Positions 3,314 through 36,783 of a DNA stretch of 44,051 nt are shown piece after piece. Made by a program: the position numbers and the translations under genes. Each line of letters opens with the position of its first letter. Position 1 is the stretch's first letter. The stretch lies in the IMG/VR virus record IMGVR_UViG_3300045988_124839. One strand, written 5' to 3'. This DNA comes from a virus. Taxonomy: Duplodnaviria; Heunggongvirae; Uroviricota; Caudoviricetes. The notes under the pieces are model-generated. The model saw only the letters and a program-made list of their open reading frames with translations, searched no databases and was not told the DNA's origin.

Positions 3314-4057
3314 ATGACAGAGACAGAATCAGCGATTCTGGCGCATGCCCGGCGATGTGCGCCAGCGGAGTCGTGCGGCTTCGTGGTGAGAGCGCCGGAG
3401 GGGGAAAGATATTTCCCCTGCGTGAATATCTCCGGTGAGCCGGAGGATTATTTCCGGATGGCTCCGGAGGACTGGCTGCAGGCAGAGATGCAGGGTGAGA
3501 TTGTGGCACTGGTCCACAGTCATCCCGGTGGTCTGCCCTGGCTGAGTGAGGCTGACCGGCGGCTGCAGGTGCAGAGTGATTTGCCGTGGTGGCTGGTCTG
3601 CCGGGGGGCGATTCACAAGTTCCGCTGTGTGCCGCATCTCACCGGGCGGCGCTTTGAGTACGGGGTGACAGACTGTTACACACTGTTCCGGGATGCTTAC
3701 CATCTGGCGGGGATTGAGATGCCGGATTTTCATCGCGGGGATGACTGGTGGCGTCACGGTCAGAATCTCTATCTTGACAATATGGAGGCGACTGGTTTTT
3801 ACCGTGTCGCACTGACAGAGGCGCAGCCTGGCGACGTGCTGCTGTGCTGCTTTGGTTCATCGGTGCCGAATCATGCCGCCATTTACTGTGGTGATGGCGA
3901 GCTGCTGCACCATATTCCTGAACAACTGAGTAAACGAGAGAGGTATACCGACAAATGGCAGCGACGCACACACTCCCTCTGGCGTCACCGGGCATGGCGC
4001 GCATCTGCCTTTACGGGGATTTACAACGATTTGGCCGCCGCATCGACCTTCGTGTGA
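3314..4057 (+). CDS. K: tail tip assembly protein K (JAB/MPN-like HSHPGG motif)
   Basis: Lambda gpK-like sequence with HSHPGG metal-binding motif; start uncertain, an internal Met at 3458 would give a 199-aa product; 3' end overlaps I. Confidence 0.82.
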   Translation: MTETESAILAHARRCAPAESCGFVVRAPEGERYFPCVNISGEPEDYFRMAPEDWLQAEMQGEIVALVHSHPGGLPWLSEADRRLQVQSDLPWWLVCRGAIHKFRCVPHLTGRRFEYGVTDCYTLFRDAYHLAGIEMPDFHRGDDWWRHGQNLYLDNMEATGFYRVALTEAQPGDVLLCCFGSSVPNHAAIYCGDGELLHHIPEQLSKRERYTDKWQRRTHSLWRHRAWRASAFTGIYNDLAAASTFV

Positions 4058-4686: not shown

Positions 4687-7600
4687 ATGGGTAAAGGCAG
4701 CAGTAAGGGGCATACCCCGCGCGAAGCGAAGGATAACCTGAAATCCACGCAGTTACTGAGTGTGATCGATGCCATCAGCGAAGGGCCGATTGAAGGTCCG
4801 GTGGATGGATTAAAAAGCGTGCTGCTGAACAGTACGCCGGTGCTGGACAGTGAGGGGAATACCAATATATCCGGTGTCACGGTGGTGTTCCGGGCAGGTG
4901 AGCAGGAGCAGACACCGCCGGAGGGATTTGAATCCTCCGGTTCCGAGACGGTGCTGGGTACGGAAGTGAAATATGACACGCCGATCACCCGGACCATCAC
5001 GTCGGCAAACATCGACCGTCTGCGCTTTACCTTCGGTGTGCAGGCACTGGTGGAAACCACCTCAAAGGGGGACAGGAATCCATCGGAAGTCCGCCTGCTG
5101 GTTCAGATACAGCGTAACGGTGGCTGGGTGACAGAAAAAGACATCACCATTAAGGGCAAAACCACCTCGCAGTATCTGGCCTCGGTGGTGGTGGATAACC
5201 TGCCGCCGCGCCCGTTTAATATCCGGATGCGCAGGATGACGCCGGACAGCACCACAGACCAGCTGCAGAACAAAACGCTCTGGTCGTCATACACCGAAAT
5301 CATCGATGTGAAACAGGGCTACCCGAACACGGCACTGGTCGGCGTACAGGTGGATTCGGAGCAGTTCGGCAGCCAGCAGGTGAGCCGTAATTATCATCTT
5401 CGCGGGCGCATTCTGCAGGTGCCGTCGAACTATAACCCGCAGACGCGGCAATACAGCGGTATCTGGGACGGGACGTTTAAACCGGCATACAGCAACAACA
5501 TGGCCTGGTGTCTGTGGGATATGCTGACCCATCCGCGCTACGGCATGGGGAAACGTCTTGGTGCGGCGGATGTGGATAAATGGGCGCTGTATGTCATCGG
5601 CCAGAATTGCGACCAGTCGGTGCCGGACGGCTTTGGCGGCACGGAGCCGCGCATCACCTGTAACGCTTACCTGACCACACAGCGCAAGGCGTGGGATGTG
5701 CTCAGTGATTTCTGCTCGGCGATGCGCTGTATGCCGGTATGGAACGGGCAGACGCTGACGTTCGTGCAGGACCGGCCGTCGGATAAGGTGTGGACCTATA
5801 ACCGCAGTAATGTGGTGATGCCGGATGATGGCGCGCCGTTCCGCTACAGTTTCAGCGCCCTGAAGGACCGCCATAATGCCGTTGAGGTGAACTGGATTGA
5901 CCCGAACAACGGCTGGGAGACGGCGACAGAGCTTGTTGAAGATACGCAGGCCATTCTCCGTTACGGTCGTAACGTCACGAAGATGGACGCCTTTGGCTGT
6001 ACCAGCCGGGGGCAGGCACACCGCGCCGGGCTGTGGCTGATTAAAACAGAACTGCTGGAAACGCAGACCGTGGATTTCAGCGTCGGCGCAGAAGGGCTTC
6101 GCCATGTGCCGGGCGATGTCATTGAAATCTGTGATGATGACTATGCCGGTATCAGCACCGGTGGTCGCGTGCTGGCGGTGAACAGCCAGACCCGGACGCT
6201 GACGCTCGACCGTGAAATCACGCTGCCATCCTCCGGTACCACGCTGATAAGCCTGGTTGACGGAAGTGGCAATCCGGTCAGCGTGGAGGTTCAGTCCGTC
6301 ACCGACGGCGTGAAGGTAAAAGTGAGCCGTGTTCCTGACGGTGTTGCTGAATACAGCGTATGGGGGCTGAAGCTGCCGACGCTGCGCCAGCGACTGTTCC
6401 GCTGCGTGAGTATCCGTGAGAACGACGACGGCACGTATGCCATCACCGCCGTGCAGCATGTGCCGGAAAAAGAGGCCATCGTGGATAACGGGGCGCACTT
6501 TGACGGCGAACAGAGTGGCACGGTGAACGGTGTCACGCCGCCAGCGGTGCAGCACCTGACCGCAGAAGTCACTGCAGACAGCGGGGAATATCAGGTGCTG
6601 GCGCGATGGGACACACCGAAGGTGGTGAAGGGCGTGAGCTTCCTGCTCCGTCTGACCGTAACAGCGGACGACGGCAGTGAGCGGCTGGTCAGCACGGCCC
6701 GGACGACGGAAACCACATACCGCTTCACGCAACTGGCGCTGGGGAACTACAGGCTGACAGTCCGGGCGGTAAATGCGTGGGGGCAGCAGGGAGATCCGGC
6801 GTCGGTATCGTTCCGGATTGCCGCACCGGCAGCACCGTCGCGGATTGAGCTGACGCCGGGCTATTTTCAGATAACCGCAACGCCGCATCTTGCCGTTTAT
6901 GATCCGACGGTACAGTTTGAGTTCTGGTTCTCGGAAAAGCGGATTACGGATATCAGGCAGGTTGAAACCAGCGCACGTTATCTTGGTACGGCGCTGTACT
7001 GGATAGCCGCCAGTATCAATATCAAGCCGGGCCATGATTATTATTTTTACATCCGCAGTGTGAACACCGTTGGCAAATCGGCATTCGTGGAGGCTGTCGG
7101 TCGGGCGAGCGATGATGCAGAAGGTTACCTGGATTTTTTCAAAGGCCAGATAACCGAATCCCATCTCGGCAAGGAGCTGCTGGAAAAAGTCGACCTGACG
7201 GAGGATAACGCCAGCAGACTGGATGAGTTTTCGAAAGAGTGGAAAGATGCCAACGATAAATGGAATGCCATGTGGGGCGTCAAAATTGAGCAGACCAAAG
7301 ACGGCAAACATTATGTCGCGGGGCTTGGCCTCAGCATGGAGGATACGGAGGAAGGCAAACTGAGTCAGTTCCTGGTTGCCGCTAACCGTATCGCGTTTAT
7401 TGACCCGGCAAACGGGAATGAAACGCCGATGTTTGTGGCGCAGGGCAACCAGATATTCATGAATGAAGTGTTCCTGAAATATCTGACGGCTCCCACCATT
7501 ACCAGCGGCGGTAATCCTCCGGCATTTTCCCTGACACCGGACGGGCGGCTGACGGCAAAAAATGCCGATATCAGCGGTAACGTGAATGCGAACTCCGGGA

Positions 7601-13018: not shown

Positions 13019-13984
13019 TTAATTATCAGTAGATTGTTCCTCTAGTAACAACTCAATTCTGCTTAGTATTTCTTTAGATATTTTTCGGCTATCAATTTTT
13101 ATAGTTACAAAATTACCTTTATATCTAGCCGTGATCCCTTCCCCATATTTTTTCTCGTCTTTTGTTTTTTCCTCGTCGCCAACCAGAACAGAGTCAGATA
13201 ATATTTGTATAATCCGTGAAGCTTCTAAATCCTCGCCGTTTTTTTTAATTGCCAGAAGATGATGAGCAGCATTGCTCATGGCAGCCATGTTTTTTTTGTA
13301 GACCTTAAACAAAGAATCTCCAGCACGAGCTGACAGTTCTCCTGGATGATTGAAGATAGCTAATATATCTTTTGGTAGACCAGCTGTATTAATACAGCGA
13401 GTGATAATATTTCTGTCTATATTTTCAGCCTCGGCTAATGCTTTAACGTTACCATCAAAGTCATTTAGCTTGCGTAAGTATCTCTTTCCTCTTTCGTATG
13501 CACTAATAGGCCTATAATCGTTACCAATTTGGGATAACCAATGCATCTGTTCATCGTCGAGATCACCTATTAAGACGCGATAGTCACATCCTGTTAATAT
13601 CGCTGCTTTTCTTCTACGTGAGCCGTCAGCGACTTCAACGATTCCAGACACTTTTCTGGCGAAAGCTGGATTTTGTTGTCCAGACGTTAGAAAAGATGGG
13701 ATTAAATCGGCTAGAGAGGATTCATTTAATAAATCTTGATCGCGTTCATTACCTAGCCATACCATTGTTGCCATTTCAACTTTATCTGCGGGAATTGTCT
13801 CTAACTTAAAGTTAACATTACGTCCGCATACTGGCAAAGTTATGCTGTTACCGGTTAATGAACTCAGTTGACGTTTTAAATCACCAACCATAGGTGATAC
13901 GGGCTGATGTTCAGGGGCATGATGATTATTACTCATAATGCGATTAATATCTGGAGCATTTTTTAGAAGAGAGCGCTGTTTCAT
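13019..13984 (-). CDS. sopB: partition protein SopB (ParB-type centromere-binding protein)
   Basis: 321 aa; immediately downstream of and overlapping (ATGA) the ParA-type ATPase gene; size and arrangement as F/N15 sopAB. Confidence 0.85.
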   Translation of the reverse strand: MKQRSLLKNAPDINRIMSNNHHAPEHQPVSPMVGDLKRQLSSLTGNSITLPVCGRNVNFKLETIPADKVEMATMVWLGNERDQDLLNESSLADLIPSFLTSGQQNPAFARKVSGIVEVADGSRRRKAAILTGCDYRVLIGDLDDEQMHWLSQIGNDYRPISAYERGKRYLRKLNDFDGNVKALAEAENIDRNIITRCINTAGLPKDILAIFNHPGELSARAGDSLFKVYKKNMAAMSNAAHHLLAIKKNGEDLEASRIIQILSDSVLVGDEEKTKDEKKYGEGITARYKGNFVTIKIDSRKISKEILSRIELLLEEQSTDN

Positions 13985-15150
13985 TATTCGTTCTCCCAGC
14001 GAGGTTTTATTAGATCATCAAAAATTTCTCGGCAAACAGGGTCCCATATAGAAACAGCATTTCTCCATGCATTCAATGTTGAACGTTGGTTTGCTGCTTG
14101 TTCAAATACTGTTCTCATTTTTATCTGGCCTTTACCTACTTCATCGGTAACGCGTACAACCTGACGTAATACCATTGATCCCCATGTATTTCTTATTTGT
14201 TCTTCCATCCATCGTGATTGATTCCCTGTAGTGAGACTATATTTAGTCAGAAGTAAGCGAACGGTTGGCTCAAATCCACCTAGGTCAACGCTTTCCAATA
14301 GATCGAGAAGCATTGTGAAAAACTGTAGAACAGAAGCGTAATCAAATAATTCTGCAGGTGTAGCAACAACAATAACGTCAGCGGCACAAACAACGTTAAT
14401 GGTTCCTGTACCGAGGTTCGGAGCACTATCTATAACGATAACATCGTAGTTATCCCAAACTGATTCAATAGCTGCGCGCAGCATAAGGTGTGGAGGATGA
14501 GGCAATTTACCCTGAGCATGATATTGCATGAGATCTGTTTCTATACGATGTAAAGCTAGGCAGCTAGGGATAATGTCTAGCCCAGGCCAACATGTTGGCT
14601 TTATAGCATATTCAGCGTTATCGCGTTCTCCTAAGTAAAATGGCAGTAAAGTATCCTCGGCATGGATATGTAAATCAGGAACATAACCGTGATACATAGA
14701 GGCCGTGCCTTGAGGATCGTTACCTTCAACCAAAAGAACACGATGACCTTGTAATGCTAACCATTGAGCTTGATGTACCGCAGACGATGTTTTATAAACG
14801 CCGCCTTTGTGTGACATAACGGCAAGCACAACAGGGTTTTTATCTTGTGGTCGTTGGTTTGGGTTGCCAAAAACTGCTCGCATACTGTTGATTTGATCTA
14901 TGGTATAACCAGCACGACGTTCAATTCTTCCTCTCATTTCAAAGTCAGGTGCAGGTAAACGCCCGCTCTTCTCAGCATCTCTAATTGCTTGAGGAGTTAC
15001 ACCAATTAAATCTGCTACTTCAGTTATACCCCATCGGCGGGTGATACGCCGAGCTTCAGGACTATCATCACCGAATTGAGCGATAGCAATTGCTTGGGTC
15101 ATTTCTTGACCTCTCGTAACACAATCTTGCAATAACTTTTTCAAAGACAT
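13984..15150 (-). CDS. sopA: partition ATPase SopA (ParA, type Ia with N-terminal HTH extension)
   Basis: 388 aa; deviant Walker A MSHKGGVYKTSS; long N-terminal extension typical of type Ia ParA. Confidence 0.9.
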   Translation of the reverse strand: MSLKKLLQDCVTRGQEMTQAIAIAQFGDDSPEARRITRRWGITEVADLIGVTPQAIRDAEKSGRLPAPDFEMRGRIERRAGYTIDQINSMRAVFGNPNQRPQDKNPVVLAVMSHKGGVYKTSSAVHQAQWLALQGHRVLLVEGNDPQGTASMYHGYVPDLHIHAEDTLLPFYLGERDNAEYAIKPTCWPGLDIIPSCLALHRIETDLMQYHAQGKLPHPPHLMLRAAIESVWDNYDVIVIDSAPNLGTGTINVVCAADVIVVATPAELFDYASVLQFFTMLLDLLESVDLGGFEPTVRLLLTKYSLTTGNQSRWMEEQIRNTWGSMVLRQVVRVTDEVGKGQIKMRTVFEQAANQRSTLNAWRNAVSIWDPVCREIFDDLIKPRWENE

Positions 15151-15164
15151 ACTGTCATCTCCAG

Positions 15165-15250
15165 CTTGTAACTTTGCTTAATAATTAAATCTTTGCTTAT
15201 TTCTAGCAAATTTGCATGAAAAAGGCAAAGCAAAACGAAAAACGCAAAGG
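15165..15250 (-). promoter_or_regulatory. sop operon promoter/operator region with CTTTGC/GCAAAG motifs
   Basis: CTTTGC at 15172 and 15191, GCAAAG at 15225 and 15244, palindrome GCAAATTTGC at 15206-15215, directly upstream of sopA. Confidence 0.5.
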
Positions 15251-15434
15251 TGAATATTTGAGCTAAATCATCTTTTGTTCCCCTCCCGAAATGCATAAAA
15301 CGAACAACGATATAATCATAACTAATTGATATTTATTATCTTTTTTAAAGAAAGGAAATCATGTAAAACTAGGGAAACATGATAAGAATCATCAATGAGA
15401 TACGTTTTCTCTATTAGTTCTCCCAATCTTACCA

Positions 15435-15585
15435 ATACGAGAACATAAACAGAGAACATAAAAATCAAGTAATGATACAAACACAACAAAGAACATAAAT
15501 AAAGAATTAAAACCAATGCTAAATAAAGCAGTACATAATATGAGAACATTACACCAAATGAGAACATTAATCAAGAACACAACGA
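15435..15585. repeat. array of (G/A)AGAACAT direct repeats left of the telomere-resolution palindrome
   Basis: GAGAACAT at 15439, 15452, 15542, 15560; AAGAACAT at 15489; AAGAACAC at 15574; AT-rich region without plausible coding. Confidence 0.7.
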
Positions 15586-15586
15586 A

Positions 15587-15628
15587 ACATAATTCCCCAT
15601 TATACGCGCGTATAATGGGGAATTATGT
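15587..15628. other. telRL: telRL-like telomere resolution site (42-bp perfect palindrome, protelomerase target)
   Basis: ACATAATTCCCCATTATACGCGCGTATAATGGGGAATTATGT is a perfect palindrome; core CCATTATACGCGCGTATAATGG matches the N15 telO core as recalled; 170 bp upstream of telN. Confidence 0.88.
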
Positions 15629-15798
15629 GCTGATCTTTAGAACAGAGTCAAGGAACAAATTTTGACGTTCCGATATTGTGTTTTTGTTTATTATCCGTTA
15701 TTATGTTCTGTTAGTTTATGACTAAGTTAACGCGTTATTAGTTATCTTATTCTCAAATTGTGTTACGATAATCCGAGCGGACAATCAGGAGAGGAAAG

Positions 15799-17706
15799 AT
15801 GAGCAAAGTAAAAATCGGTGAATTAATAAACTCACTTGTTAGCGATGTTGAGTCAATAGATAACTCTGACCGTCCTCAAGGGGAAAAAACAAAAAAAATA
15901 AAAGCTGTTGCATTAAAATTTAAAAATGCATTATTTAATGACAAGCGAAAGTTTAGGGGGAAAGGATTAGAAAAAAGAATTACAGCCAACACATTCAATG
16001 CCTATATGAGCAGGGCCAGAAAACGGTTTGATGATAAACTTCATCATAGCTTTGAAAAAAATATACATCGCCTATCTGAAAAGTATCCTTTATATAATGA
16101 GGAGCTATTATCATGGCTTTCTCTACCTGCTGCCGATATTCGCCAGAGAATGTCAGCTTTACAGGCAAAATTAAAATTAATTCTCCCTTTATCAGAAGAT
16201 TTATCTAATATCAGAATTGGTGATAACAAAAGTCATAATAAGTTATTAAAATTATCAAATAAATATAAAGAGTGGCAATTCGCCATTTCTGATTTAACTA
16301 GCGATAACTGGAAAGATAAGCGCGATTATTTATATAAATTACTACAGCAAGGATCTGCCTTACTTGAGGAGTTGAATCAGCTAAAAGTTAACCATGAGAT
16401 TCTCTATCATCTTCAACTAAGCCCTGCCGAACGCGCATCTATCCAGCAACGATGGGCAGACGTTCTGCACAATAAGAAACGTAACGTGGTGGTCATTGAT
16501 TACCCTAAATATATGCAAGCTATTTACGATATTATAAATAGCCCTGCTACATTAAATAATCTAAACACTCGTTCAGGTATGGCTCCTTTGGCATTTGCAC
16601 TTGCTGCATTGTCAGGAAGACGAATGATTGAGATTATGTATCAAGGTACATTTACTGTTTCTGGTAAGTATACCGTTGATTTTTTAGGCCAAGCAAAAAA
16701 AAGAACTTCTGATGATATAACCAGAAAAATATATACATTATGCGAAGCAAAAACATTTGTTTATTTAATAAATGTACTTCGCTCATGCCCAGCAGCATCT
16801 GATTTTGATGATGTCGTTAAAGGTTATGGAGATAACGACACACGCTCTGAAAACGGACGGATTAATGCCATATTAGCAAAGGCTTTTAACCCGTGGGTTA
16901 AATCATTTTTCAAAGATGACCGCCGTGTTTATAAAGATAGTCGTGCTATTTATGCCCGTATTGCGTATGAAATGTTTTTCCGCGTAGATCCTCGTTGGAA
17001 AAACGTAGATGAGGATGTTTTCTTTATGGAAATTTTAGGCCATGACGATGAAAACACTCAATTACACTATAAGCAATTCAAGCTGGCCAACTTCTCAAAG
17101 ACATGGAGGCCAAATACTGGAAACGAAAATACCAGGCTGGAAGCATTGCAGCAGCTTGATGACGAAATGCCAGGATTCGCCAGAGGAGATGCCGGAGTTC
17201 GTCTGCATAACACAGTTAAGCAGCTGGTAGAGCAGGACCCCTCTATAAAAATCACGAACAGCACTCTAAGAGCATTCAAATTTAGCCCTACAATGATTAG
17301 TCGATACCTGGAATTTGCTGCTGATGCTCTGGGGCAATTTGTTGGCGAAAATGGACAATGGCAGCTGAAAATAGATTCTCCAGAAATCGTTATGCCTGAC
17401 GAAGAAGAGCTGGAAGCAATACCTGAACAGACGGATGAATTATCAGAGGATGACGATCTGGATGACGACGAAATTGAGATAGAGGAAGAGGAAGAGGAAG
17501 AGGAAGAGGAAGAGAGCGTAGAAGAACAGCAACCGCCCGCGCCTTCTTCACCTGTATCTAAGCCGGTATTTAAGCCTGTGAGAAATATTGGTGATGGCTC
17601 ATACGTTGTTGAGTTTCATTATAATGGCCAGAATTATGCTTGGTCCGGCAGTGCAAACAGCCCTATATCAGCAATGCAGTTAGCATGGCTGACATATTTC
17701 GGATAA
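15799..17706 (+). CDS. telN: protelomerase TelN
   Basis: 635 aa; N-terminus MSKVKIGELIN...RPQG.KTK.IKA...KNALFNDKRKFRGKGL.KRITANTFNAYMSRARKRFDDKLHHSF and much of the body match N15 TelN as recalled; acidic Glu/Asp-rich C-terminal tract; RBS AGGAGAGGAAAG. Confidence 0.95.
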   Translation: MSKVKIGELINSLVSDVESIDNSDRPQGEKTKKIKAVALKFKNALFNDKRKFRGKGLEKRITANTFNAYMSRARKRFDDKLHHSFEKNIHRLSEKYPLYNEELLSWLSLPAADIRQRMSALQAKLKLILPLSEDLSNIRIGDNKSHNKLLKLSNKYKEWQFAISDLTSDNWKDKRDYLYKLLQQGSALLEELNQLKVNHEILYHLQLSPAERASIQQRWADVLHNKKRNVVVIDYPKYMQAIYDIINSPATLNNLNTRSGMAPLAFALAALSGRRMIEIMYQGTFTVSGKYTVDFLGQAKKRTSDDITRKIYTLCEAKTFVYLINVLRSCPAASDFDDVVKGYGDNDTRSENGRINAILAKAFNPWVKSFFKDDRRVYKDSRAIYARIAYEMFFRVDPRWKNVDEDVFFMEILGHDDENTQLHYKQFKLANFSKTWRPNTGNENTRLEALQQLDDEMPGFARGDAGVRLHNTVKQLVEQDPSIKITNSTLRAFKFSPTMISRYLEFAADALGQFVGENGQWQLKIDSPEIVMPDEEELEAIPEQTDELSEDDDLDDDEIEIEEEEEEEEEEESVEEQQPPAPSSPVSKPVFKPVRNIGDGSYVVEFHYNGQNYAWSGSANSPISAMQLAWLTYFG

Positions 17707-22900: not shown

Positions 22901-23907
22901 GTGGCAGATTTCCGGTCATTATCCAGTGCGCAGGTGATTTTTGCCGCCGGGTACATGTTTACCAGTTGTTCCACAACATGAACCATGTTGTTAGCGGATA
23001 CAGCGACAACCACAGCGTCAAAGCGTTTATCTTTTTTCGTGGCAAGCCAGATGGATGCACCAGTAGCAAAACCTTCTGTAACAGCGATGTTTTGCGCCCC
23101 TTTCAGCTCACCGATAACAAAGCAGGCACCGACGAAATCGCCGCTGGTTACTGCGCTGGTCTGGTATTTCCCACCTTGTTTGTCGATTCGCTGCCAACCC
23201 ACAATACGACCATCATAACGACCGTCCAGGTGAGCCAGAGGGATAGCCATATATGTGGTTGGCCCCCGGCTCCATTTCGCACTGTCGTGACTGGTCACGC
23301 GACGCACATCACATGAACTAAAAACGTCACGAATACCTTTTTTAATCGCATATGGCCATGAGCCGTCTTCAGCCGGAGCATGTTCCCACGCGCTGTGGAA
23401 TGCCAGCCATCCCAGCAAACGTTCATGGTCCATTTGGTTGTTTTTCAGGTCATTAATTCGTTTTTGTTCTTCACGGCGACGACGTGCTTCGGCCTGACGT
23501 TCTATTCTTTCCCGTTCTTCTTCCGGTTGTGCGACCACGGTCGCATTATTCCGTTGTTGCTCACGGCGATATTCAGAAAACAGGAAGGAGAAACCGCTCC
23601 ATGAGCCAGCATCGCTGCCTTTATGGACGAAGTTAATGAACGGGTAATCAATCCCTTTGCTGTGTTCCAGCCTGGAGTAAATTTCTACGCGTCCTTTCAG
23701 GCTCTTTTCGAGAGCTTCTGGAGATGTTTTATTGTATGAAGAGTAACGCTCACCCCCCCCGCGAGGGTTGAGTTGGATGTTGTCGGAACAGGCAGGCCAG
23801 TTGATACCAGCCATCTGTGCCAGCTCGGTTAGTTCATCCCGTGCTGCTTCAATTAGCGAGAACGGATCGCTGCCAAAGCGATCCGCATAGAAATCGTTTA
23901 ATGTCAT
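19912..23907 (-). CDS. repA: replication protein RepA (primase-helicase)
   Basis: 1331 aa; Walker A GMGSGKST; size and position (leftward, between telN and cB) as N15 RepA (about 1320 aa). Confidence 0.85.
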   Translation of the reverse strand: MTLNDFYADRFGSDPFSLIEAARDELTELAQMAGINWPACSDNIQLNPRGGGERYSSYNKTSPEALEKSLKGRVEIYSRLEHSKGIDYPFINFVHKGSDAGSWSGFSFLFSEYRREQQRNNATVVAQPEEERERIERQAEARRRREEQKRINDLKNNQMDHERLLGWLAFHSAWEHAPAEDGSWPYAIKKGIRDVFSSCDVRRVTSHDSAKWSRGPTTYMAIPLAHLDGRYDGRIVGWQRIDKQGGKYQTSAVTSGDFVGACFVIGELKGAQNIAVTEGFATGASIWLATKKDKRFDAVVVAVSANNMVHVVEQLVNMYPAAKITCALDNDRKSATEGKGNTGLRTGYEILSKFNDVRCVYPTFEDDPQMECSDFNDLHKLRGLRETARQLFATANRLKTGTDLLSLTLNRLKTIKRDNRRTFAKELLRAVDIGMLTCPVPNSPSDLFNMFCIVLREMGLENIYRATVKDHIARRLNKKCRIAQAPRSFSERITDPNKRPQHITYKRFETSVMTDDVLKYVQSLQGIVIVRAGMGSGKSTGLLRPLMHSSERGISVAHRVSLIGGLWEMMTEGKGVKADILHYQDPGYQEMAPYASKLTICINSIVKNCWQPLMRQHDYFGFDEATQGLRAVLSGRAMENPVAVFNTLIDALARTEQHPIMVDADANDLLVDLAELAMKRREELGLPAWLQIHVIELPVDVRNRETGEPIRVFYTEKDRIMTEVVKAVSDGEKIMLATDSSTFAEDVTATLRMHFPGKKFLCVNQKNKPEPEVEAFTNQPKKMVKKYDGLIYSPSISSGVSIEQKHFDRHFGMFCGEVVPSDAVQMLRRDRTAKEFIIGFDKARAKRETDPQKIERAFAQALLATAGMNGELTDVVFDGDRISMGVANTDFTRMKIKAAAIEATARNDYASNMICIMHSDGYKVSPLATDYAANDIGKDLRKEARDIVWEQTLDLHLNTETPQESEREELLKKRALTLEEQAKLVRWDIENELKLPVEEGTLKFYFDGARDKIRRYETMLLDEVTARRYDREEAAINFTYAYRQAGQWQYFVVTAMTREQADDVFKTKFPGIIDHKVKATPTVEVGARGFYALKSATLRQYFIDCGINPETMTGEATQERLKFARDNLMTAERRDLLNNVLHIGGFMTPKGKPKVPEALFKNICDSLGLKTGKRRGRDGDKRPTLRFVEPESAAFMLDILVQRQKDGLTLKTRKAEKTAIEMDRDLDLNIYMDDKTRSTNEQVQNAPHSVISEALAVLPVAVPESWAMSALSSEELATMSSWSSASIAMTFASLYLTEFMDHLSSNELRRLREYITGNSSCSYEEQGAFYG

Positions 23908-25769: not shown

Positions 25770-26015
25770 ATGTTCAGGAAACCGTCGAAGCCAGAATTAA
25801 GGTATTCGGGGGTAAGAAATGAATATGTTATCTGGTGTCCAACTTGTGGTTACAGGACACGACCAGATAGTAATAAGCAGTCTGTAATTGCCGATTGGTA
25901 TTTATCAAATCAGCCAGGTAATAAGCATATAGAAAATCTTTGGATTAAGCGTTACTTGGAAATCAGAGAGGGTGCGACCGTGGTCGCACAAGAAAATGAA
26001 AATAACGCCATTTAA
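25770..26015 (+). CDS. small zinc-ribbon-like protein
   Basis: From the internal ATG at 25770; CPTCGY motif; the 3' end contains centromere-like palindrome 1. Confidence 0.35.
   Translation: MFRKPSKPELRYSGVRNEYVIWCPTCGYRTRPDSNKQSVIADWYLSNQPGNKHIENLWIKRYLEIREGATVVAQENENNAI
25972..25989. other. SopB-binding-like centromere palindrome 1 (GTGCGACC-GT-GGTCGCAC)
   Basis: 8-bp inverted arms around a 2-bp centre, same architecture as the F sopC core TGGGACC-AC-GGTCCCA; one of four copies in the window. Confidence 0.7.
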
Positions 26016-30983: not shown

Positions 30984-31001
30984 GTGCGACCACGGTCGCA
31001 C
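30984..31001. other. SopB-binding-like centromere palindrome 2 (GTGCGACC-AC-GGTCGCAC)
   Basis: Same 8-2-8 palindrome as site 1 with the centre inverted; about 20 bp upstream of a putative promoter. Confidence 0.7.
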
Positions 31002-31200: not shown

Positions 31201-32322
31201 ATGCGCATCGCCGGGTTAGCTTACCCAGGCAAAAAAATAATAGCTATGTTCAAAACCACTAATATTCATGGCGCACAACTCGTTTGCGCAGATTCTCTGC
31301 AATTTATCAAAACCATCCCTGATAACTCGGTCAATTTGATTGCAACAGACCCACCATACTTCGGCGTAAAAGCTAACGCATGGGATAACCAGTGGGATAG
31401 CGATGCTGACTTTTTGGGGTGGATTGACGAATTTTTGGCAGAATTTTGGCGGATATTGGCCCCTAATGGCAGCCTGTATATGTTTACCGGCTCTCGCCTT
31501 GCGTCAAAAATTGAATTATTAACTCGCGACCGTTTCAATGTTCTGAACCATATCATTTGGGCTAAACCCAGTGGTATGTGGCGCGGTTGTCATAAAGAAA
31601 GTTTAAGGGCTTATTTTCCTGCTACTGAAAGAATATTATTTGCAGAGCATTACGGCGCGTCAGGTTATGCTAAAGGTCAGTCAGGTTATGCTTCAAAATG
31701 TGCAGATTTAAGAAAAAATATTTTTTCTCCACTAATTGATGCTTTTTCGCTGGCTCGCCGTCAGTTAGATATATCAGCCGCAGACATTAATTCAGCGACA
31801 GGAAAGCAGATGTGTTCACACTGGTTTTCTTATTCGCAGTGGCGGCTTCCATCATTAATTGATTTTAATAAACTATGCGAATTATTTCGCAGGAAGGCAG
31901 ATTCACTCGGTGTCCCGTGTCCATATCCTTTTAATGTTGATTATTCAGAACATGAAAAGCGTTATAGCGTTCTGAAATTGCATTATGAGGAAGTAAAGAA
32001 GCAGTATGATGATTTGAAGGCTCAGTATGAAAATTTACGCCGTCCATTTCATGTTACTGCTGATGTACCTTATACCGATGTATGGGAGTTTCCTCCTGTG
32101 CAATATTATCCTGGCAAGCACCCATGTGAAAAACCTGCAGCGATGATGGAACATATTATAAAGAGTAGTTCACGCCCCGGAGATATCGTTGCCGATTTCT
32201 TTATGGGATCAGGCTCAACTATTAAAGCTGCGCTGAAGTTAGGACGTCAGGCAATAGGTATTGAGATTGAGGGCGAACGTTATCTTCAGACAGTTGATGA
32301 AGTGAAAAAGTTATTTGAGTAA
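31201..32322 (+). CDS. DNA N6-adenine methyltransferase (beta class)
   Basis: DPPY catalytic motif (NLIATDPPYFGV) N-terminal to the AdoMet motif FxGxGS (DFFMGSGST); alternative start at ATG 31246. Confidence 0.85.
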   Translation: MRIAGLAYPGKKIIAMFKTTNIHGAQLVCADSLQFIKTIPDNSVNLIATDPPYFGVKANAWDNQWDSDADFLGWIDEFLAEFWRILAPNGSLYMFTGSRLASKIELLTRDRFNVLNHIIWAKPSGMWRGCHKESLRAYFPATERILFAEHYGASGYAKGQSGYASKCADLRKNIFSPLIDAFSLARRQLDISAADINSATGKQMCSHWFSYSQWRLPSLIDFNKLCELFRRKADSLGVPCPYPFNVDYSEHEKRYSVLKLHYEEVKKQYDDLKAQYENLRRPFHVTADVPYTDVWEFPPVQYYPGKHPCEKPAAMMEHIIKSSSRPGDIVADFFMGSGSTIKAALKLGRQAIGIEIEGERYLQTVDEVKKLFE

Positions 32323-32417: not shown

Positions 32418-32690
32418 ATGAAGATGGATGAACGATACAGCAGTGCATCTTATGGTAGCGCTGGTCTTGCTGCGTTCTTTGCCAGCCTGTCATTGCAGGA
32501 TTGGGGCTTCATTATCGGTGTCGCGTTCAGCATTATCCTCGGTGTGCTTACATACCGGCTCAATAAACGCGAGCAGATGAAGCGCACGAAGATATTGCAG
32601 GACATATTGGATAAAACTAATACCAATAATCTTTCTGCTACAGCGATGGTTATTGGAGAGCTGGGGAAGAGAGCACCGAAGGAAATATGA
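32418..32690 (+). CDS. class II holin (S21-like pinholin) with dual-start motif
   Basis: Begins MKM (two in-frame starts separated by Lys); two transmembrane segments ([12 protein letters not shown] / [18 protein letters not shown]); charged C-terminus; directly upstream of endolysin. Confidence 0.7.
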
Positions 32691-33187
32691 TGCAGTCATC
32701 ATTACGCAAAGCTGTCACAGCTGCTATTGGTGGCGGGGCTATTGCCATAGCGTCTATGCTCATCACTGGCCCAAGTGGTAACGATGGTCTGGAAGGTGTC
32801 AGTTACATACCATACAAAGATATTGTTGGCGTATGGACTGTATGTCACGGACACACCGGAAAAGACATCATGCTCGGTAAAACGTATACCGAAGCAGAAT
32901 GCAAAGCCCTCCTGAATAAAGACCTTGCCACGGTTGCCAGACAAATTAACCCGTACATCAAAGTCGATATACCGGAAACAACGCGCGGCGCTCTTTACTC
33001 GTTCGTCTACAACGTGGGTGCTGGCAATTTCAGAACATCGACGCTTCTTCGCAAAATAAACCAGGGCGATATTAAAGGCGCATGTGACCAGCTACGTCGC
33101 TGGATATACGCTGGCGGTAAGCAATGGAAAGGCCTGATGACTCGTCGTGAGATTGAGCGTGAAGTCTGTTTGTGGGGGCAACAATGA
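32687..33187 (+). CDS. endolysin (T4-lysozyme-like, GH24) with N-terminal SAR signal-anchor
   Basis: Weakly hydrophobic Gly/Ala-rich N-terminus [18 protein letters not shown]; catalytic Glu-8aa-Asp-5aa-Thr pattern ([18 protein letters not shown]); ATGA overlap with holin stop. Confidence 0.88.
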
Positions 33188-33621
33188 GCAGAGTAACCGC
33201 GATTATCTCCGCTCTGGTTATCTGCATCATCGTCTGCCTGTCGTGGGCGGTCAATCATTACCGTGATAACGCCATCGCCTACAAAGAGCAGCGCGATAAA
33301 GCCACATCCACAATCGCTGATATGCAGAAGCGTCAACGTGACGTAGCAGAACTCGATGCCAGATATACAAAGGAGCTTGCTGATGCTAACGCGACTATCG
33401 AAAGCCTCCGTGCTGATGTTTCTGCTGGGCGTAAGCGCCTGCAAGTCGCCGCCACCTGTGCAAAGTCAACGACCGGAGCCAGCGGCATGGGCAATGGAGA
33501 AAGCCCAAGACTTACAGCAGATGCTGAACTCAATTATTACCGTCTCCGAAGTGGGATCGACAGGATAACTGCGCAGGTTAACTACTTGCAGGAATACATC
33601 AAGACGCAATGCCTGAATTAA
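33184..33621 (+). CDS. Rz: i-spanin Rz
   Basis: ATG overlaps the endolysin stop; N-terminal transmembrane segment [23 protein letters not shown] then coiled-coil; lambda Rz-like sequence. Confidence 0.8.
33356..33568 (+). CDS. Rz1: o-spanin Rz1 (lipoprotein embedded in Rz, +1 frame)
   Basis: Embedded ORF with lipobox LLGVSAC followed by a Pro-rich segment ([13 protein letters not shown]); true start may be the internal Met at 33383. Confidence 0.6.
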
Positions 33622-33662
33622 TCCCTCTGTATCAAAAACGAGCTCAATTTGTTGGATAGTGA

Positions 33663-33974
33663 ATGAAAATTTATATTGCCGGGCCAATGACGGGATATGA
33701 GAACTTTAATCGTGACGCCTTTAATAAAGAGGCAGATCGTTTGTCACGACATGGTCACTCTGTCTTGAATCCAGCCACTTTGCCTAATGGTCTGACACAA
33801 CGTGAATACATGGATATTTGCTTTGCAATGCTTCGTTGTGCTGATGCTATTTTGATGCTTCCTGGCTGGAAAGCGTCTGCTGGAGAAACTGCTGAGTATC
33901 ATTACGCATACAAGATGGAGATGCAGGTATTCACTACGCTGAATTACCCGCCAGCTTGTTCCTCTGTAGCATAA
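33663..33974 (+). CDS. DUF4406-family protein (nucleoside 2-deoxyribosyltransferase-like fold)
   Basis: MKIYIAGPMTGYENFNR...NPA...CDAILMLPGWKAS.G pattern characteristic of DUF4406. Confidence 0.6.
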   Translation: MKIYIAGPMTGYENFNRDAFNKEADRLSRHGHSVLNPATLPNGLTQREYMDICFAMLRCADAILMLPGWKASAGETAEYHYAYKMEMQVFTTLNYPPACSSVA

Positions 33975-33993
33975 AAATCTCTTTGTTTCTCGT

Positions 33994-34011
33994 TTGCGAC
34001 CGTGGTCGCAC
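33994..34011. other. SopB-binding-like centromere palindrome 3 (TTGCGACC-GT-GGTCGCAC)
   Basis: 8-2-8 palindrome with one mismatch at the first base. Confidence 0.65.
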
Positions 34012-34021
34012 ATTAAATACC

Positions 34022-34193
34022 GCGCTGCATCGTCGCCGTATTTCCGCATTAACCATGACCGTAGCCCGACGGGGAACTCCTCTGCGCGAGTGTGCGGAAA
34101 TAATCAAAAACGATGCACACCGGGTTTTTACCGCGCTAATGATTCGCGGGTTTGTCCCTCATGCTCGCCAGTCCTGTGCGAGGGTGGAAGAAA
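34022..34193. repeat. 172-bp direct repeat, copy A (conserved lambdoid intergenic element)
   Basis: About 85% identical to copy B at 35807-35978, with shared blocks CCGTAGCCCGACGGGGAACTCC and ATAATCAAAAACGATGCACACCGGGTTTTTACCGCG; lies between palindromes 3 and 4. Confidence 0.8.
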
Positions 34194-34213
34194 CAGGGCA
34201 TGTATTCAGGAGC

Positions 34214-34231
34214 GTGCGACCGTGGTCGCAC
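34214..34231. other. SopB-binding-like centromere palindrome 4 (GTGCGACC-GT-GGTCGCAC)
   Basis: Perfect copy of the site-1 sequence, 23 bp upstream of the cassette gene start. Confidence 0.7.
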
Positions 34232-34254
34232 GGTATCTTTGTCAGGAGGTTTTG

Positions 34255-35115
34255 ATGAAAGAGTTGCAAAAAATTAATTCAATAATGGAAAGGTTAAGTG
34301 CTCTTGAGCGTAAGCTGGACGATTGTGGAAAGCTGTGTGTTGAAAAGCAAAATGAGCTTTACCGGGAATTTTTTACAATCGTAAGTGAGCTGATGCCAAT
34401 TGTTAATAACTGCCTGATGACATCCAGATTTTTTAATGTCGATGCTACTACATCCAGAAAATTTTCTGTGAAAATTCAAGAAAGAGTTTCTGGTAGTGTG
34501 ACAAGAGAGATGGCTGAACAGTTGGTGGCAATGAGCAATAAAACAAAAAGAAAAAAGGCATTGCTTGTAACAGCAAATCAGCTTTCAGGGCGCGTTGACT
34601 TTCAGGTCAGACAGGGTGGGCGTGTACTGGTAAATGATGCGTTCGTTGGACGTAGCTTTAGTCCGTACTCGATGAAATATGATGTTGATGCAGATGATCA
34701 GGATATCAGTATTTCTTGGAAATCTGAGACAGCAGGGATCGTATTAACAGCAGAGTTGTTGAGTGATGATAAAAATGATGTCCGGCATCATTTGGACGAA
34801 AAGAATCATATTTCTGAAATCTGTATGAAACCACGTAGTGGAATGACTTTATTGTCGCGAACTCTTGCTGCTGGCTTTTCTTTACCGGAGAAACGTGTGC
34901 TTCTGGTAGTGCCTGAAGATGCAGATATTCGACCACTGAATGGCTGTGATGTTATTAGTGCAAAAACATTGCATACCAGAATCATGCCTGTACCTGATGT
35001 GGTCATCATTGATGATATTGAGAAATGCAAATCTGTTTCCTCAACTGCCATAATCAAACGAATTTTACGTTGTAGCTCGTCGGCTGTTGTATTCCGGAAG
35101 CAGTTACATAACTAA
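34255..35115 (+). CDS. hypothetical protein (286 aa) of AT-rich accessory cassette
   Basis: Strong RBS AGGAGG 7 nt before ATG at 34255; N-terminal coiled-coil; no recognisable catalytic motif; ORF-track entry 33994-35115 is an upstream TTG extension through palindrome 3. Confidence 0.6.
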   Translation: MKELQKINSIMERLSALERKLDDCGKLCVEKQNELYREFFTIVSELMPIVNNCLMTSRFFNVDATTSRKFSVKIQERVSGSVTREMAEQLVAMSNKTKRKKALLVTANQLSGRVDFQVRQGGRVLVNDAFVGRSFSPYSMKYDVDADDQDISISWKSETAGIVLTAELLSDDKNDVRHHLDEKNHISEICMKPRSGMTLLSRTLAAGFSLPEKRVLLVVPEDADIRPLNGCDVISAKTLHTRIMPVPDVVIIDDIEKCKSVSSTAIIKRILRCSSSAVVFRKQLHN

Positions 35116-35240
35116 CCAGTTTTGTTTTGCAGAACATCCTCAATTAAAAGCTTATAGAAAGAGAGCCTGAGATATTTTTTCTGTCTCTCGTAGTTGTTTA
35201 TTTTTTTTTCGAACAGGCTTACAACTTACAGGATATAAAT

Positions 35241-35690
35241 ATGCAAGAAGAAGCAAATAAAATTCTTGTTGATTTATTGAAGAAGGCCAGCGATGGAATT
35301 GATTCCGCCATTGCATTCAGTCAGGCTCAGATTCCGGATGTTGTTCATCAGTTGCTGGTATGGAATATGGTTGATAGCCTGATTAAAACATTAATAGCCA
35401 TTTCAACAATCCCGCTGGTTTTCTGGTTTATGAAGAAACAGTACCAAAAAGTTGAAATTGGTAAGTTCGATGATGAAGGATGGTCATGGGATAAGGGGAA
35501 GACTAAATACAAACCGACTATGATTTGGGAAAGTAACGGTGAGATTAGTTTTCTAATCTTACCATTAGCTGCAGTTTTTGTTCTGTGGGTAAGTTTTATT
35601 ATTGCTGTAGTAACCAATATGACATGGTTAAAAATTTGGCTGGCACCTAAGTTATATCTAATCGAATACGCAGCATCACTAATTACATAG
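35241..35690 (+). CDS. membrane protein (149 aa, two transmembrane segments) of accessory cassette
   Basis: Hydrophobic segments LIKTLIAISTIPLVFWF and ISFLILPLAAVFVLWVSFIIAVV; AT-rich; follows the 286-aa gene on the same strand. Confidence 0.55.
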   Translation: MQEEANKILVDLLKKASDGIDSAIAFSQAQIPDVVHQLLVWNMVDSLIKTLIAISTIPLVFWFMKKQYQKVEIGKFDDEGWSWDKGKTKYKPTMIWESNGEISFLILPLAAVFVLWVSFIIAVVTNMTWLKIWLAPKLYLIEYAASLIT

Positions 35691-35806
35691 TCCATTACAA
35701 AAGCCATTCGCTACTGAGTGGCTTTGATAATGGCTTATACCCTACACGGGATAACTTAACTGATATCCCTTTTAACGGATAAAGGTATTCAAGCCTGACA
35801 CATCAT

Positions 35807-35978
35807 GCGCTGTATCGTCGCCGTATTCCCGTATTAACAGAGACCGTAGCCCGACGGGGAACTCCTTCTGCGCGAGTGTGCGGGAATAATCAAAAACGAT
35901 GCACACCGGGTTTTTACCGCGTTTATGGTGCGCGATTTTGTCCCTCATAGTCGCCCGTCCGGTGCGATGGTGGAAGAA
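35807..35978. repeat. 172-bp direct repeat, copy B (adjacent to cos)
   Basis: Direct repeat of 34022-34193; ends about 70 bp upstream of the cosN-like sequence. Confidence 0.8.
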
Positions 35979-36009
35979 GCCGGATATTAATGCAAGTGAT
36001 AATTATTCT

Positions 36010-36237
36010 CACCTTTGCGGGTCCTTTCCGGCGATCCGGCAGGCTACGGGGCGGAAGGCGCGCGGGTTTTCGCTATTTATGAAAATTTTCCGGTTTAAGG
36101 CGTTTCCGTTCTTCTTCGCCGTAACTTAATGTTTTTATTTAAAACACCCCCTGAAAAGAAAGGAAACGACAGATGCTGAAAACGGGCTTTTTGGCCTCTG
36201 TCGTTTCCTTTCTCTGTTTTTGTCCGTGGAATGAACA
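36010..36237 (+). other. cos: cos region (cosQ/cosN/cosB-like) upstream of Nu1
   Basis: ...GGGTCCTTTCCGGCGATCCGGCAGGCTACG / GGGCGGAAGGCG / CGCGGGTTTTCGCTATTTATGAAAATTTTCCGG... is near-identical to the lambda right-end/left-end junction as recalled, except inside the 12-nt cosN position (36049-36060). Confidence 0.75.
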
Positions 36238-36757
36238 ATGGAAGTCAACAAAAAGCAGCTGGCTGATATTTTCGGTGCGAGTATCCGTACCATTCAGAAC
36301 TGGCAGGAGCAGGGAATGCCCGTTCTGCGAGGCGGTGGCAAGGGTAATGAGGTGCTTTATGATTCTGCCGCCGTCATAAAATGGTATGCCGAAAGGGATG
36401 CTGAAATTGAGAACGAAAAGCTGCGCCGGGAGGTTGAAGAACTGCGGCTGGCCAGCGAGGCAGATCTTCACCCCGGAACACTTGAATTTGAGCGCCATCG
36501 CCTGACCCGTGCTCAGGCGACGGCGCAGGAACTGAAAAATGCCAAAGAATCGGCTGAAGTGGTGGAAACCGCATTCTGTACTTTCGTGCTGTCGCGTATA
36601 GCAAGGGAAATATCCAGTATTCTCGACGGTATTCCTCTGTCGGTGCAGCGACGTTTTCCTGAGCTGGATAACCGGCATATTGATTTCCTGAAACGGGATA
36701 TCATCAAAGCCATGAACAAAGCAGCCGCGCTGGATGAACTGATACCGGGGTTGCTGA

Positions 36758-36783
<26 letters not shown>
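36238..36783 (+). CDS. Nu1: terminase small subunit Nu1
   Basis: 181 aa; MEVNKKQLADIFGASIRTIQNWQEQGMPV... matches lambda gpNu1 as recalled. Confidence 0.95.

Follow-up and report, generated by a model that had tools for sequence, protein, structure and literature searches.

Two separable accessory genes occupy the slot between the lysis genes and cos of an N15-like linear phage-plasmid

Results

Two intact genes lie in an AT-rich insert ahead of cos

The 44,051-nucleotide stretch of DNA studied here (IMG/VR record IMGVR_UViG_3300045988_124839, a virus of the Caudoviricetes; "the window" below means this whole stretch) is an N15-like linear phage-plasmid, or telomere phage. Between a DUF4406 gene, the final conserved late gene ahead of a variable slot, and cos, it carries a 1.6-kb AT-rich insert with two intact genes, ORF-A and ORF-B (ORF, open reading frame). 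A preliminary description of this DNA had read the two genes as a compact cassette, in which a cytoplasmic effector is combined with a small membrane partner, and as a candidate novel accessory or defence module. Our analysis bears this reading out in part: the insert is accessory and occupies a hot spot next to a centromere-like palindrome, but it is neither a coupled cassette nor novel in kind. The features of the locus are as follows.

33995-34011: palindrome, the other of the two copies flanking the left repeat
34022-34208: left direct repeat, a copy of the common lambdoid pre-cos segment
34215-34231: palindrome TGCGACCGTGGTCGCAC, 23 bp before the ATG of ORF-A; a terminator-like hairpin by score
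34244-35185, plus strand: ORF-A module, a 942-bp indel relative to positions 3959-4045 of locus L019, comprising the Shine-Dalgarno sequence, ORF-A and 70 bp of 3' flank
34255-35115, plus strand: ORF-A, 286 amino acids, AGGAGG 5 nt ahead of the ATG, PHROG 2571
35241-35690, plus strand: ORF-B, 149 amino acids, AGGA 7 nt ahead of the ATG, PHROG 3054
35807-35994: right direct repeat, the resident pre-cos segment
36049-36060: cosN-equivalent 12-mer GGGCGGAAGGCG, the right-hand limit of the accessory slot, placed by alignment with the lambda cos and with the first 12 bases of N15

The two genes form a same-strand pair with a ribosome-binding site before each start codon, as had been described, and the ratio of nonsynonymous to synonymous substitution (dN/dS) supports both of them. 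Compared to their homologues, this ratio is 0.15-0.25 for ORF-A (0.24 against the 79%-identical copy at locus L012) and 0.11-0.50 for ORF-B. ORF-A and ORF-B are therefore real, intact genes under purifying selection.

The low G+C content attributed to the insert was also confirmed. Positions 34232-35806 have 38.4% G+C. The window as a whole has 49.1%, the lysis genes have 49% and Nu1-A has 54%. The insert falls within the lowest 4% of all 1575-bp windows of this DNA; the minimum lies elsewhere. At a scale of 1.6 kb that minimum (32.8%) is at approximately 15201-16775, around the spacer that separates sopA from the protelomerase gene and the first part of the latter.

ORF-A and ORF-B are separate modules

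An obligate pair is never found apart, and ORF-A and ORF-B are. A tblastn search found homologues of ORF-B in at least 179 phage records, none of them close to an ORF-A homologue. Among complete Escherichia coli genomes, ORF-B-type genes occur in 69, and 41 of these 69 do not have a full-length ORF-A. Conversely, an intact and constrained ORF-A (79% identical) stands alone between Rz and cos in two assemblies (L012 and L013).

Comparisons of individual loci gave the same result. An identical ORF-B protein, WP_059328172.1, is accompanied by ORF-A in locus L018 and occurs without it in L019, while beside a 97%-identical ORF-A the nucleotide identity of the ORF-B allele ranges from 90% to 97%. 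In the alignment with L019, a degenerate palindrome and the leader GGTATCTTTGTC run straight into the last 55 bp of the spacer between ORF-A and ORF-B, which defines the ORF-A module as a clean indel whose ends carry the microhomology TTTGTC/TCTGTC. The wide occurrence of ORF-B alone, the existence of ORF-A alone, the variation in allele and the L019 indel thus identify ORF-A and ORF-B as separate single-gene modules, linked by chance in one recent lineage. The idea of a compact effector and membrane-partner cassette was not borne out.

Cargo in the slot varies among related phages

The preliminary description had placed the two genes at the classic moron position of lambdoid phages and had proposed a survey of related telomere phages at this locus. 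The survey showed that the cargo varies, as expected of an accessory slot. The bor gene is found there in lambda, PhiR34_1 and PhiR47_2, ybcV in PhiR70_1, a dcm methylase gene and gp59 in N15, and a TonB-like gene in others. When N15-like and lambdoid loci were compared, variants with both ORF-A and ORF-B, with ORF-A only, with ORF-B only, shortened and empty were all recovered. A relationship between ORF-A and N15 gp59, an occupant of the same slot, was considered and tested; there is none.

Genes of the moron type, in the sense of Hendrix and Juhala, are absent from the same position in close relatives and deviate in base composition. Both are true of this insert: in N15, PhiR34_1, PhiR70_1, PhiR47_2 and lambda the position is filled by other cargo or is empty, and the G+C content of the insert is well below the 49-54% of its flanks. 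ORF-A and ORF-B therefore share with the known lambdoid morons between Rz and cos (lambda bor, ybcV and the TonB-like gene) their slot, a patchy presence among collinear phages and a deviant composition. Lambda bor lies on the opposite strand and has its own expression in lysogens. Unlike bor, ORF-A and ORF-B have the orientation of the late genes, and no promoter of their own was detected; in sequence they are unrelated to these morons.

Signs of decay of more than one kind were seen among the E. coli genomes H108, H109 and H115, YDC107_1 (L003) and L020. Insertions of the IS5 family of insertion sequences lie in or beside the cassette, and two recurrent deletions leave the first 584 or 353 nt of ORF-A, with ORF-B gone. 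A search of positions 33500-36400 against Rfam gave no match.

The flanking repeats are copies of a common pre-cos segment

Direct repeats do bracket the insert, as had been reported, although they are not 172 bp long: each is ~187 bp, and the two are 85-90% identical with a 1-nt indel between them. The repeated segment was matched in 4175 of 5426 complete E. coli genomes, and part of it is also found in lambda, with bor on one side and lambdap78 on the other. "Empty" slots, that of PhiR34_1 among them, have a single copy. The repeats are thus two copies of a pre-cos segment found in most lambdoid prophages of E. coli.

A minus-strand ORF of 58 amino acids (35772-35948) is intact in the right repeat and conserved in L012; in the left repeat it is disrupted by a stop codon and a frameshift. 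It matched no Pfam or PHROG family. We had considered that the repeat might represent the ylcI/ynfO (DUF3950) gene and dropped this idea, as the translated 58-amino-acid ORF is unrelated to YlcI.

The same cassette is present in plasmid-prophages of ~46 kb and in chromosomal lambdoid prophages. This spread fits our inference that the repeats supply the homology by which cargo is looped out and recombined into other phages. Such loop-out and re-insertion would explain why slots with both genes, with ORF-A only, with ORF-B only, with truncated cargo and with none are all found.

ORF-A is a mosaic protein with a core tied to the lysis cassette

Residues 1-286 of ORF-A align with positions 1-291 of the 291 in PHROG 2571 (E = 7.2e-160), a family of uncharacterized function. 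The protein had been described as soluble, and we agree: it has no hydrophobic segment, the best mean over 19 residues on the Kyte-Doolittle scale being 1.15. An AlphaFold2 model with a predicted local distance difference test (pLDDT) score of 61 consists of a helical hairpin (residues 2-58), a six-stranded beta-domain (100-169) and an alpha/beta domain (197-279). The N-terminal coiled coil of the preliminary description falls in the hairpin. The hairpin itself is predicted at a pLDDT of ~60-70; the coiled coil is doubtful, as the heptad score of residues 4-26 was equalled by 34 of 500 shuffled sequences. The C-terminal alpha/beta domain carries degenerate Walker-A/B-like motifs and does not fit the Walker A pattern GxxxxGK[ST] with its catalytic lysine. 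The family search revealed no DNA-binding or ParA/ParB-like signature, and no colicin or bacteriocin domain, whether pore-forming or nuclease, was recognizable in ORF-A, nor was there any significant structural match.

ORF-A has a narrow distribution. Among 5.8 billion proteins it accounts for 15 clusters (90% identity), each from Escherichia, and a set of 1.84 billion proteins contains one full-length representative. The 5426 complete E. coli genomes contain 28 full-length and 7 truncated copies.

The beta-domain of ORF-A has relatives of a different architecture. A profile of this domain (ORF-A ~98-170) retrieved a family of proteins of ~74 amino acids, which map to positions 100-172 of PHROG 2571 and are equivalent to the beta-domain; ORF-A has the N-terminal hairpin and the C-terminal alpha/beta domain in addition. 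This family is widespread: lambdoid prophages of Salmonella and E. coli, O55:H7 CB9615 among them, carry its genes directly after Rz and with a start that overlaps the Rz stop, which suggests translational coupling to Rz. Their products (5001-5225 in both L025 and L023) have conserved cysteines, GKCTEC...VEC, that are lost in ORF-A. A further relative of 181 amino acids (protein P0144; L021, 5826-6371) has the swapped order, with the beta-domain followed by a coiled-coil-like tail that matches PHROG 2091; it is coded between Q and the holins of another lambdoid prophage of E. coli. We conclude that ORF-A is a mosaic of a helical hairpin, a post-Rz beta-domain and a small alpha/beta domain. Because the beta-domain is shared with the 74-amino-acid post-Rz proteins, the core of ORF-A is a late-operon domain tied to the lysis cassette and is not foreign to lambdoid phages.

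ORF-B belongs to a widespread family of small, probable membrane proteins

Residues 1-148 of ORF-B align with positions 1-136 of the 137 in PHROG 3054 (E = 1.2e-57), likewise a family of uncharacterized function. The two membrane segments reported previously were found again as hydrophobic helices at ~38-64 and 103-125, to which the AlphaFold2 model (pLDDT 64) adds amphipathic helices at the N and C termini. Conservation is highest in the N-terminal helix and in the C-terminal amphipathic helix.

The homologues of ORF-B occupy a variety of positions. In Sf6 (gp34), CUS-3, SPN9CC, HF4s, Oslo and HK639 the gene before them in the early-left operon is N, ral or sieB. In a virulent N4-like Ithacavirus the homologue is among the early genes, and in Vibrio myophages homologues form an opposite-strand insert among tail genes. 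The PHROG 3054 members Sf6 gp34, HK639 gp44, vB_SosS_Oslo gp46 and HF4s gp37 are 42-78% identical to ORF-B; they belong to the early-left operon, whereas ORF-B stands at the end of the late operon.

T4 Imm, P22 SieA and HK97 gp15 are small inner-membrane proteins that act in superinfection exclusion. Like them, ORF-B would be a small membrane accessory protein of a kind found in temperate and virulent phages; the likeness is in kind only, as no sequence or profile similarity to these three proteins was found.

Searches for known functions and for expression signals

In agreement with the earlier statement that neither protein has a recognizable motif, no family of known function was found for either. 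Pfam and NCBIfam gave no meaningful match for ORF-A, ORF-B or the separate domains of ORF-A. PADLOC (PADLOC-DB 2.0) returned nothing for ORF-B and only a partial DrmMII match for ORF-A (E = 0.022, 11.6 bits). Hidden Markov model searches of the PDB with the ORF-A, beta-domain and ORF-B families yielded nothing below E = 0.4, and the Pfam and PHROG matches of the two proteins included no holin, antiholin or spanin family. The literature on the PHROG numbers and on the PhiR phage names contained nothing relevant that we could find. The claim of novelty did not survive, since PHROG 2571 and PHROG 3054 already exist and the proteins are present in GenBank as hypothetical proteins. A published survey with DefenseFinder covered seven contigs of N15-like phage-plasmids from E. 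coli and Shigella and reported no complete defence system (bioRxiv 10.1101/2025.09.12.675607).

Morons also typically have a promoter and a terminator of their own, by which they are expressed from the repressed prophage. A scan of the plus strand from 33500 to 36300 revealed no sigma-70-like site; this was a crude consensus scan of an AT-rich region, which a weak or non-sigma-70 promoter could escape. The only terminator-like hairpin near the two genes is the palindrome upstream of ORF-A. ORF-A and ORF-B share the strand of the late genes, in the Rz-cos interval. Given this orientation and the negative scan for a sigma-70 promoter, the two genes are probably transcribed late in lytic growth, by Q-antiterminated read-through from the lysis genes towards cos. 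Such timing would weaken the idea that they protect the lysogen.

The palindrome upstream of ORF-A matches the SopB sites of N15 in sequence

The palindrome 23 bp upstream of ORF-A had been called centromere-like. Its 14-nt core, GCGACCGTGGTCGC, occurs five times in the window (23531-23544, 25974-25987, 30986-30999, 33996-34009 and 34216-34229), as compared to 0.4 copies expected. The copies are located within repA, shortly after Q, ahead of the late methylase gene and, in two cases, on either side of the left repeat. The last two suggest a local duplication of the palindrome together with the repeat.

An 18-bp palindrome, GTGCGACC(AC/GT)GGTCGCAC, is shared with N15, where one copy lies in repA and another near the right end, in the interval from gene 58 to gene 59; position 45563 of the N15 record holds the same 18-mer, and the N15 annotation gives this palindrome as a putative terminator. 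Four sites have been named in N15, IR1 to IR4; an exact-match search for the core counted two copies in N15, against the five in the window. The SopB sites of F and N15 differ only at position 4/4' of each half-site (PMC2910045). When GTGCGACCGTGGTCGCAC of the window was compared to CTGGGACCACGGTCCCAC of F sopC, a G-to-C change was seen at exactly this position. Both SopA and SopB are coded in the window, and this, with the 18-mer match to N15, identifies the palindromes by sequence as putative N15-type SopB centromere sites, dispersed over the genome as they are in N15 and likewise present within repA and near the right end.

A palindrome lies 23-25 bp upstream of ORF-A in all ORF-A loci examined, including those in chromosomal prophages (L012, L018 and L020). 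In L019, a chromosomal prophage with ORF-B only, it is degenerate (GTGCGACCGTGGTTGCTC), as expected of a passenger site in the absence of SopB.

Genome context

The assignment of the window to the N15-like telomere phages is based on several observations. Along its full length, the region shares 97% identity with Escherichia phage PhiR46_1, a linear genome of 46.3 kb with annotated telL/telR, ParA/ParB and primase (PV340565); YDC107_1, a close relative, is placed in Ravinvirus, the genus of N15. The window also codes for a CB-type repressor, Q and a lambda-type terminase and contains cos. Genes outside the slot that bear on the argument are listed below.

13019-13984, minus strand: SopB, with a SoPB_HTH domain (domain match)
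13984-15150, minus strand: SopA, ParA type (domain match)
15799-17706: protelomerase (domain match)
31201-32322: late DNA methylase (late region)
32418-32690: holin (late region)
32687-33187: lysozyme (late region)
33172-33621: Rz (late region)
33663-33974, plus strand: DUF4406 gene, homologue of N15 gene 57 (Pfam DUF4406, E = 4.5e-33; N15 annotation)
36238-36783: Nu1, followed by terminase A

An ORF in another frame inside Rz (33356-33568, plus strand) has a lipobox-like LLGVSAC and a proline-rich stretch and is most likely the Rz1 o-spanin. The late methylase has 373 amino acids, of which residues 44-361 span only 216 positions of the Pfam N6_N4_Mtase model; relative to the 284-amino-acid product of N15 gene 52 it has an insert of ~100 amino acids with a weak leucine-zipper-like match. 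The cosN-equivalent GGGCGGAAGGCG departs from N15 GGGCGGCGTCCG in its second half, and it departs in the same half from lambda GGGCGGCGACCT. Downstream of it, within 36157-36213, is a 26-nt inverted repeat, the counterpart of the R3/R2 region of lambda cosB.

Discussion

Taken as a whole, the explanation that we favor with moderate confidence is that ORF-A and ORF-B are two independent, late-transcribed accessory genes of the moron type. Our confidence is high for the anatomy and evolution of the locus and low for its function. ORF-B would most likely insert in the inner membrane and work there on its own, in exclusion or in host takeover; it might, for example, keep out the DNA of superinfecting phages. 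This proposal is made because temperate and virulent phages alike carry the family and because its neighbors in lambdoid and P22-like phages include ral and sieB, genes that themselves act in exclusion or anti-restriction. ORF-A may be an accessory protein of the cytoplasm, probably an oligomer, with a link to the lysis cassette.

Several observations weigh against this explanation. ORF-B follows each of the 28 full-length copies of ORF-A in complete E. coli genomes, and the two may be functionally coupled; with an identity of 95-99%, however, these copies represent few independent events. L019 holds a second pairing, with a member of PHROG 2571 and ORF-B sharing a slot. Charge counts leave the membrane topology of ORF-B ambiguous, both AlphaFold2 models are mediocre, and the promoter scan was a crude, consensus-based one in AT-rich DNA. 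Finally, what the explanation says about function, namely membrane exclusion and late expression, is argued from position and analogy.

It could be speculated instead that the two genes form a superinfection-exclusion or abortive-infection system, with ORF-A as cytoplasmic sensor or effector and ORF-B as its membrane partner, which protects the lysogen. The adjacent same-strand genes in a moron hot spot, the AT-rich insert, the 28 of 28 pairing, the joint transfer of both genes between plasmids of the N15 type and lambdoid prophages in the chromosome, and the degenerate P-loop-like domain of ORF-A speak for such a system. However, ORF-B is overwhelmingly solitary, virulent phages included, and ORF-A on its own is under purifying selection; alleles of ORF-B have been swapped beside the same ORF-A, an identical ORF-B exists without it, and the ORF-A indel at the ORF-B-only locus L019 is clean. 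Moreover, 7 of the 35 E. coli copies are truncated, the PADLOC result (DrmMII for ORF-A, none for ORF-B) is not credible, and the late strand with no promoter detected makes expression in the lysogen doubtful. We therefore regard this system as unlikely. A related reading, in which PHROG 3054 is an unrecognized but widespread class of inner-membrane exclusion or counter-defence proteins, joined here to the degenerate P-loop protein ORF-A as a late two-part module beside a SopB site, strikes us as rather improbable. Another possibility is that ORF-A and the membrane protein ORF-B form the tail end of the lysis cassette and tune or assist host lysis, for instance the timing of holin or spanin action. 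The genes follow holin, lysozyme and Rz directly on the late strand, the beta-domain family comes right after Rz with its start over the Rz stop in many lambdoid prophages, the permuted relative is coded just upstream of holins, and ORF-B is small with two hydrophobic helices, like class II holins and antiholins. On the other hand, ORF-B homologues are found mainly in early operons distant from lysis genes, Pfam and the PHROGs show no similarity of either protein to holins, antiholins or spanins, many related phages lyse their hosts without ORF-A and ORF-B, and the sequence of ORF-B does not have the charged C-terminal tail that is typical of holins. A role in lysis is thus quite unlikely.

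The presence of the palindrome 23-25 bp upstream of ORF-A at every ORF-A locus examined, in a window that codes for SopA and SopB, raises the question of a centromere-linked module, in which the palindrome makes ORF-A dependent on SopB and ORF-A serves plasmid maintenance or SopB-dependent late control. According to the title of Ravin et al. 2008, cited in PMC11652158, the Sop proteins of N15 facilitate late gene expression. Yet the same site precedes the unrelated gene 59 in N15 and is degenerate at the ORF-B-only chromosomal locus, as a passenger would be, while ORF-A has no DNA-binding or ParA/ParB-like signature and is absent from most N15-like phages, which makes this a very improbable explanation. 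Least credible of all is a bacteriocin-like toxin with its membrane immunity protein, by which ORF-A would be freed at lysis, as its late-operon position would allow, and ORF-B would shield kin. The combination does resemble the telocin:immunity pair TelA/ImmA, a soluble and an inner-membrane protein that are likewise accessory cargo of a telomere phage. In Klebsiella telomere phages, however, this locus lies between repA and telN, the protelomerase gene, and not in the slot discussed here (PMC12042878), and no telocin homologue was reported from the N15-like phage-plasmids of E. coli and Shigella (bioRxiv 10.1101/2025.09.12.675607). In addition, ORF-A has no bacteriocin domain or significant structural match, and ORF-B is not bound to ORF-A, genes of its type being solitary in virulent phages.

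The present evidence points to no new kind of system. Rather, the locus exemplifies the exchange of single-gene modules in the slot between lysis genes and cos of lambdoid and N15-like phages, an exchange that probably proceeds via the common pre-cos repeat and that crosses the boundary between plasmid-prophages and integrated prophages. PHROG 3054 is common in the N/ral/sieB neighborhood of many P22-like and lambdoid phages and also occurs in virulent phages. A function for PHROG 3054 or for the 74-amino-acid post-Rz protein would annotate hundreds of phage genomes.

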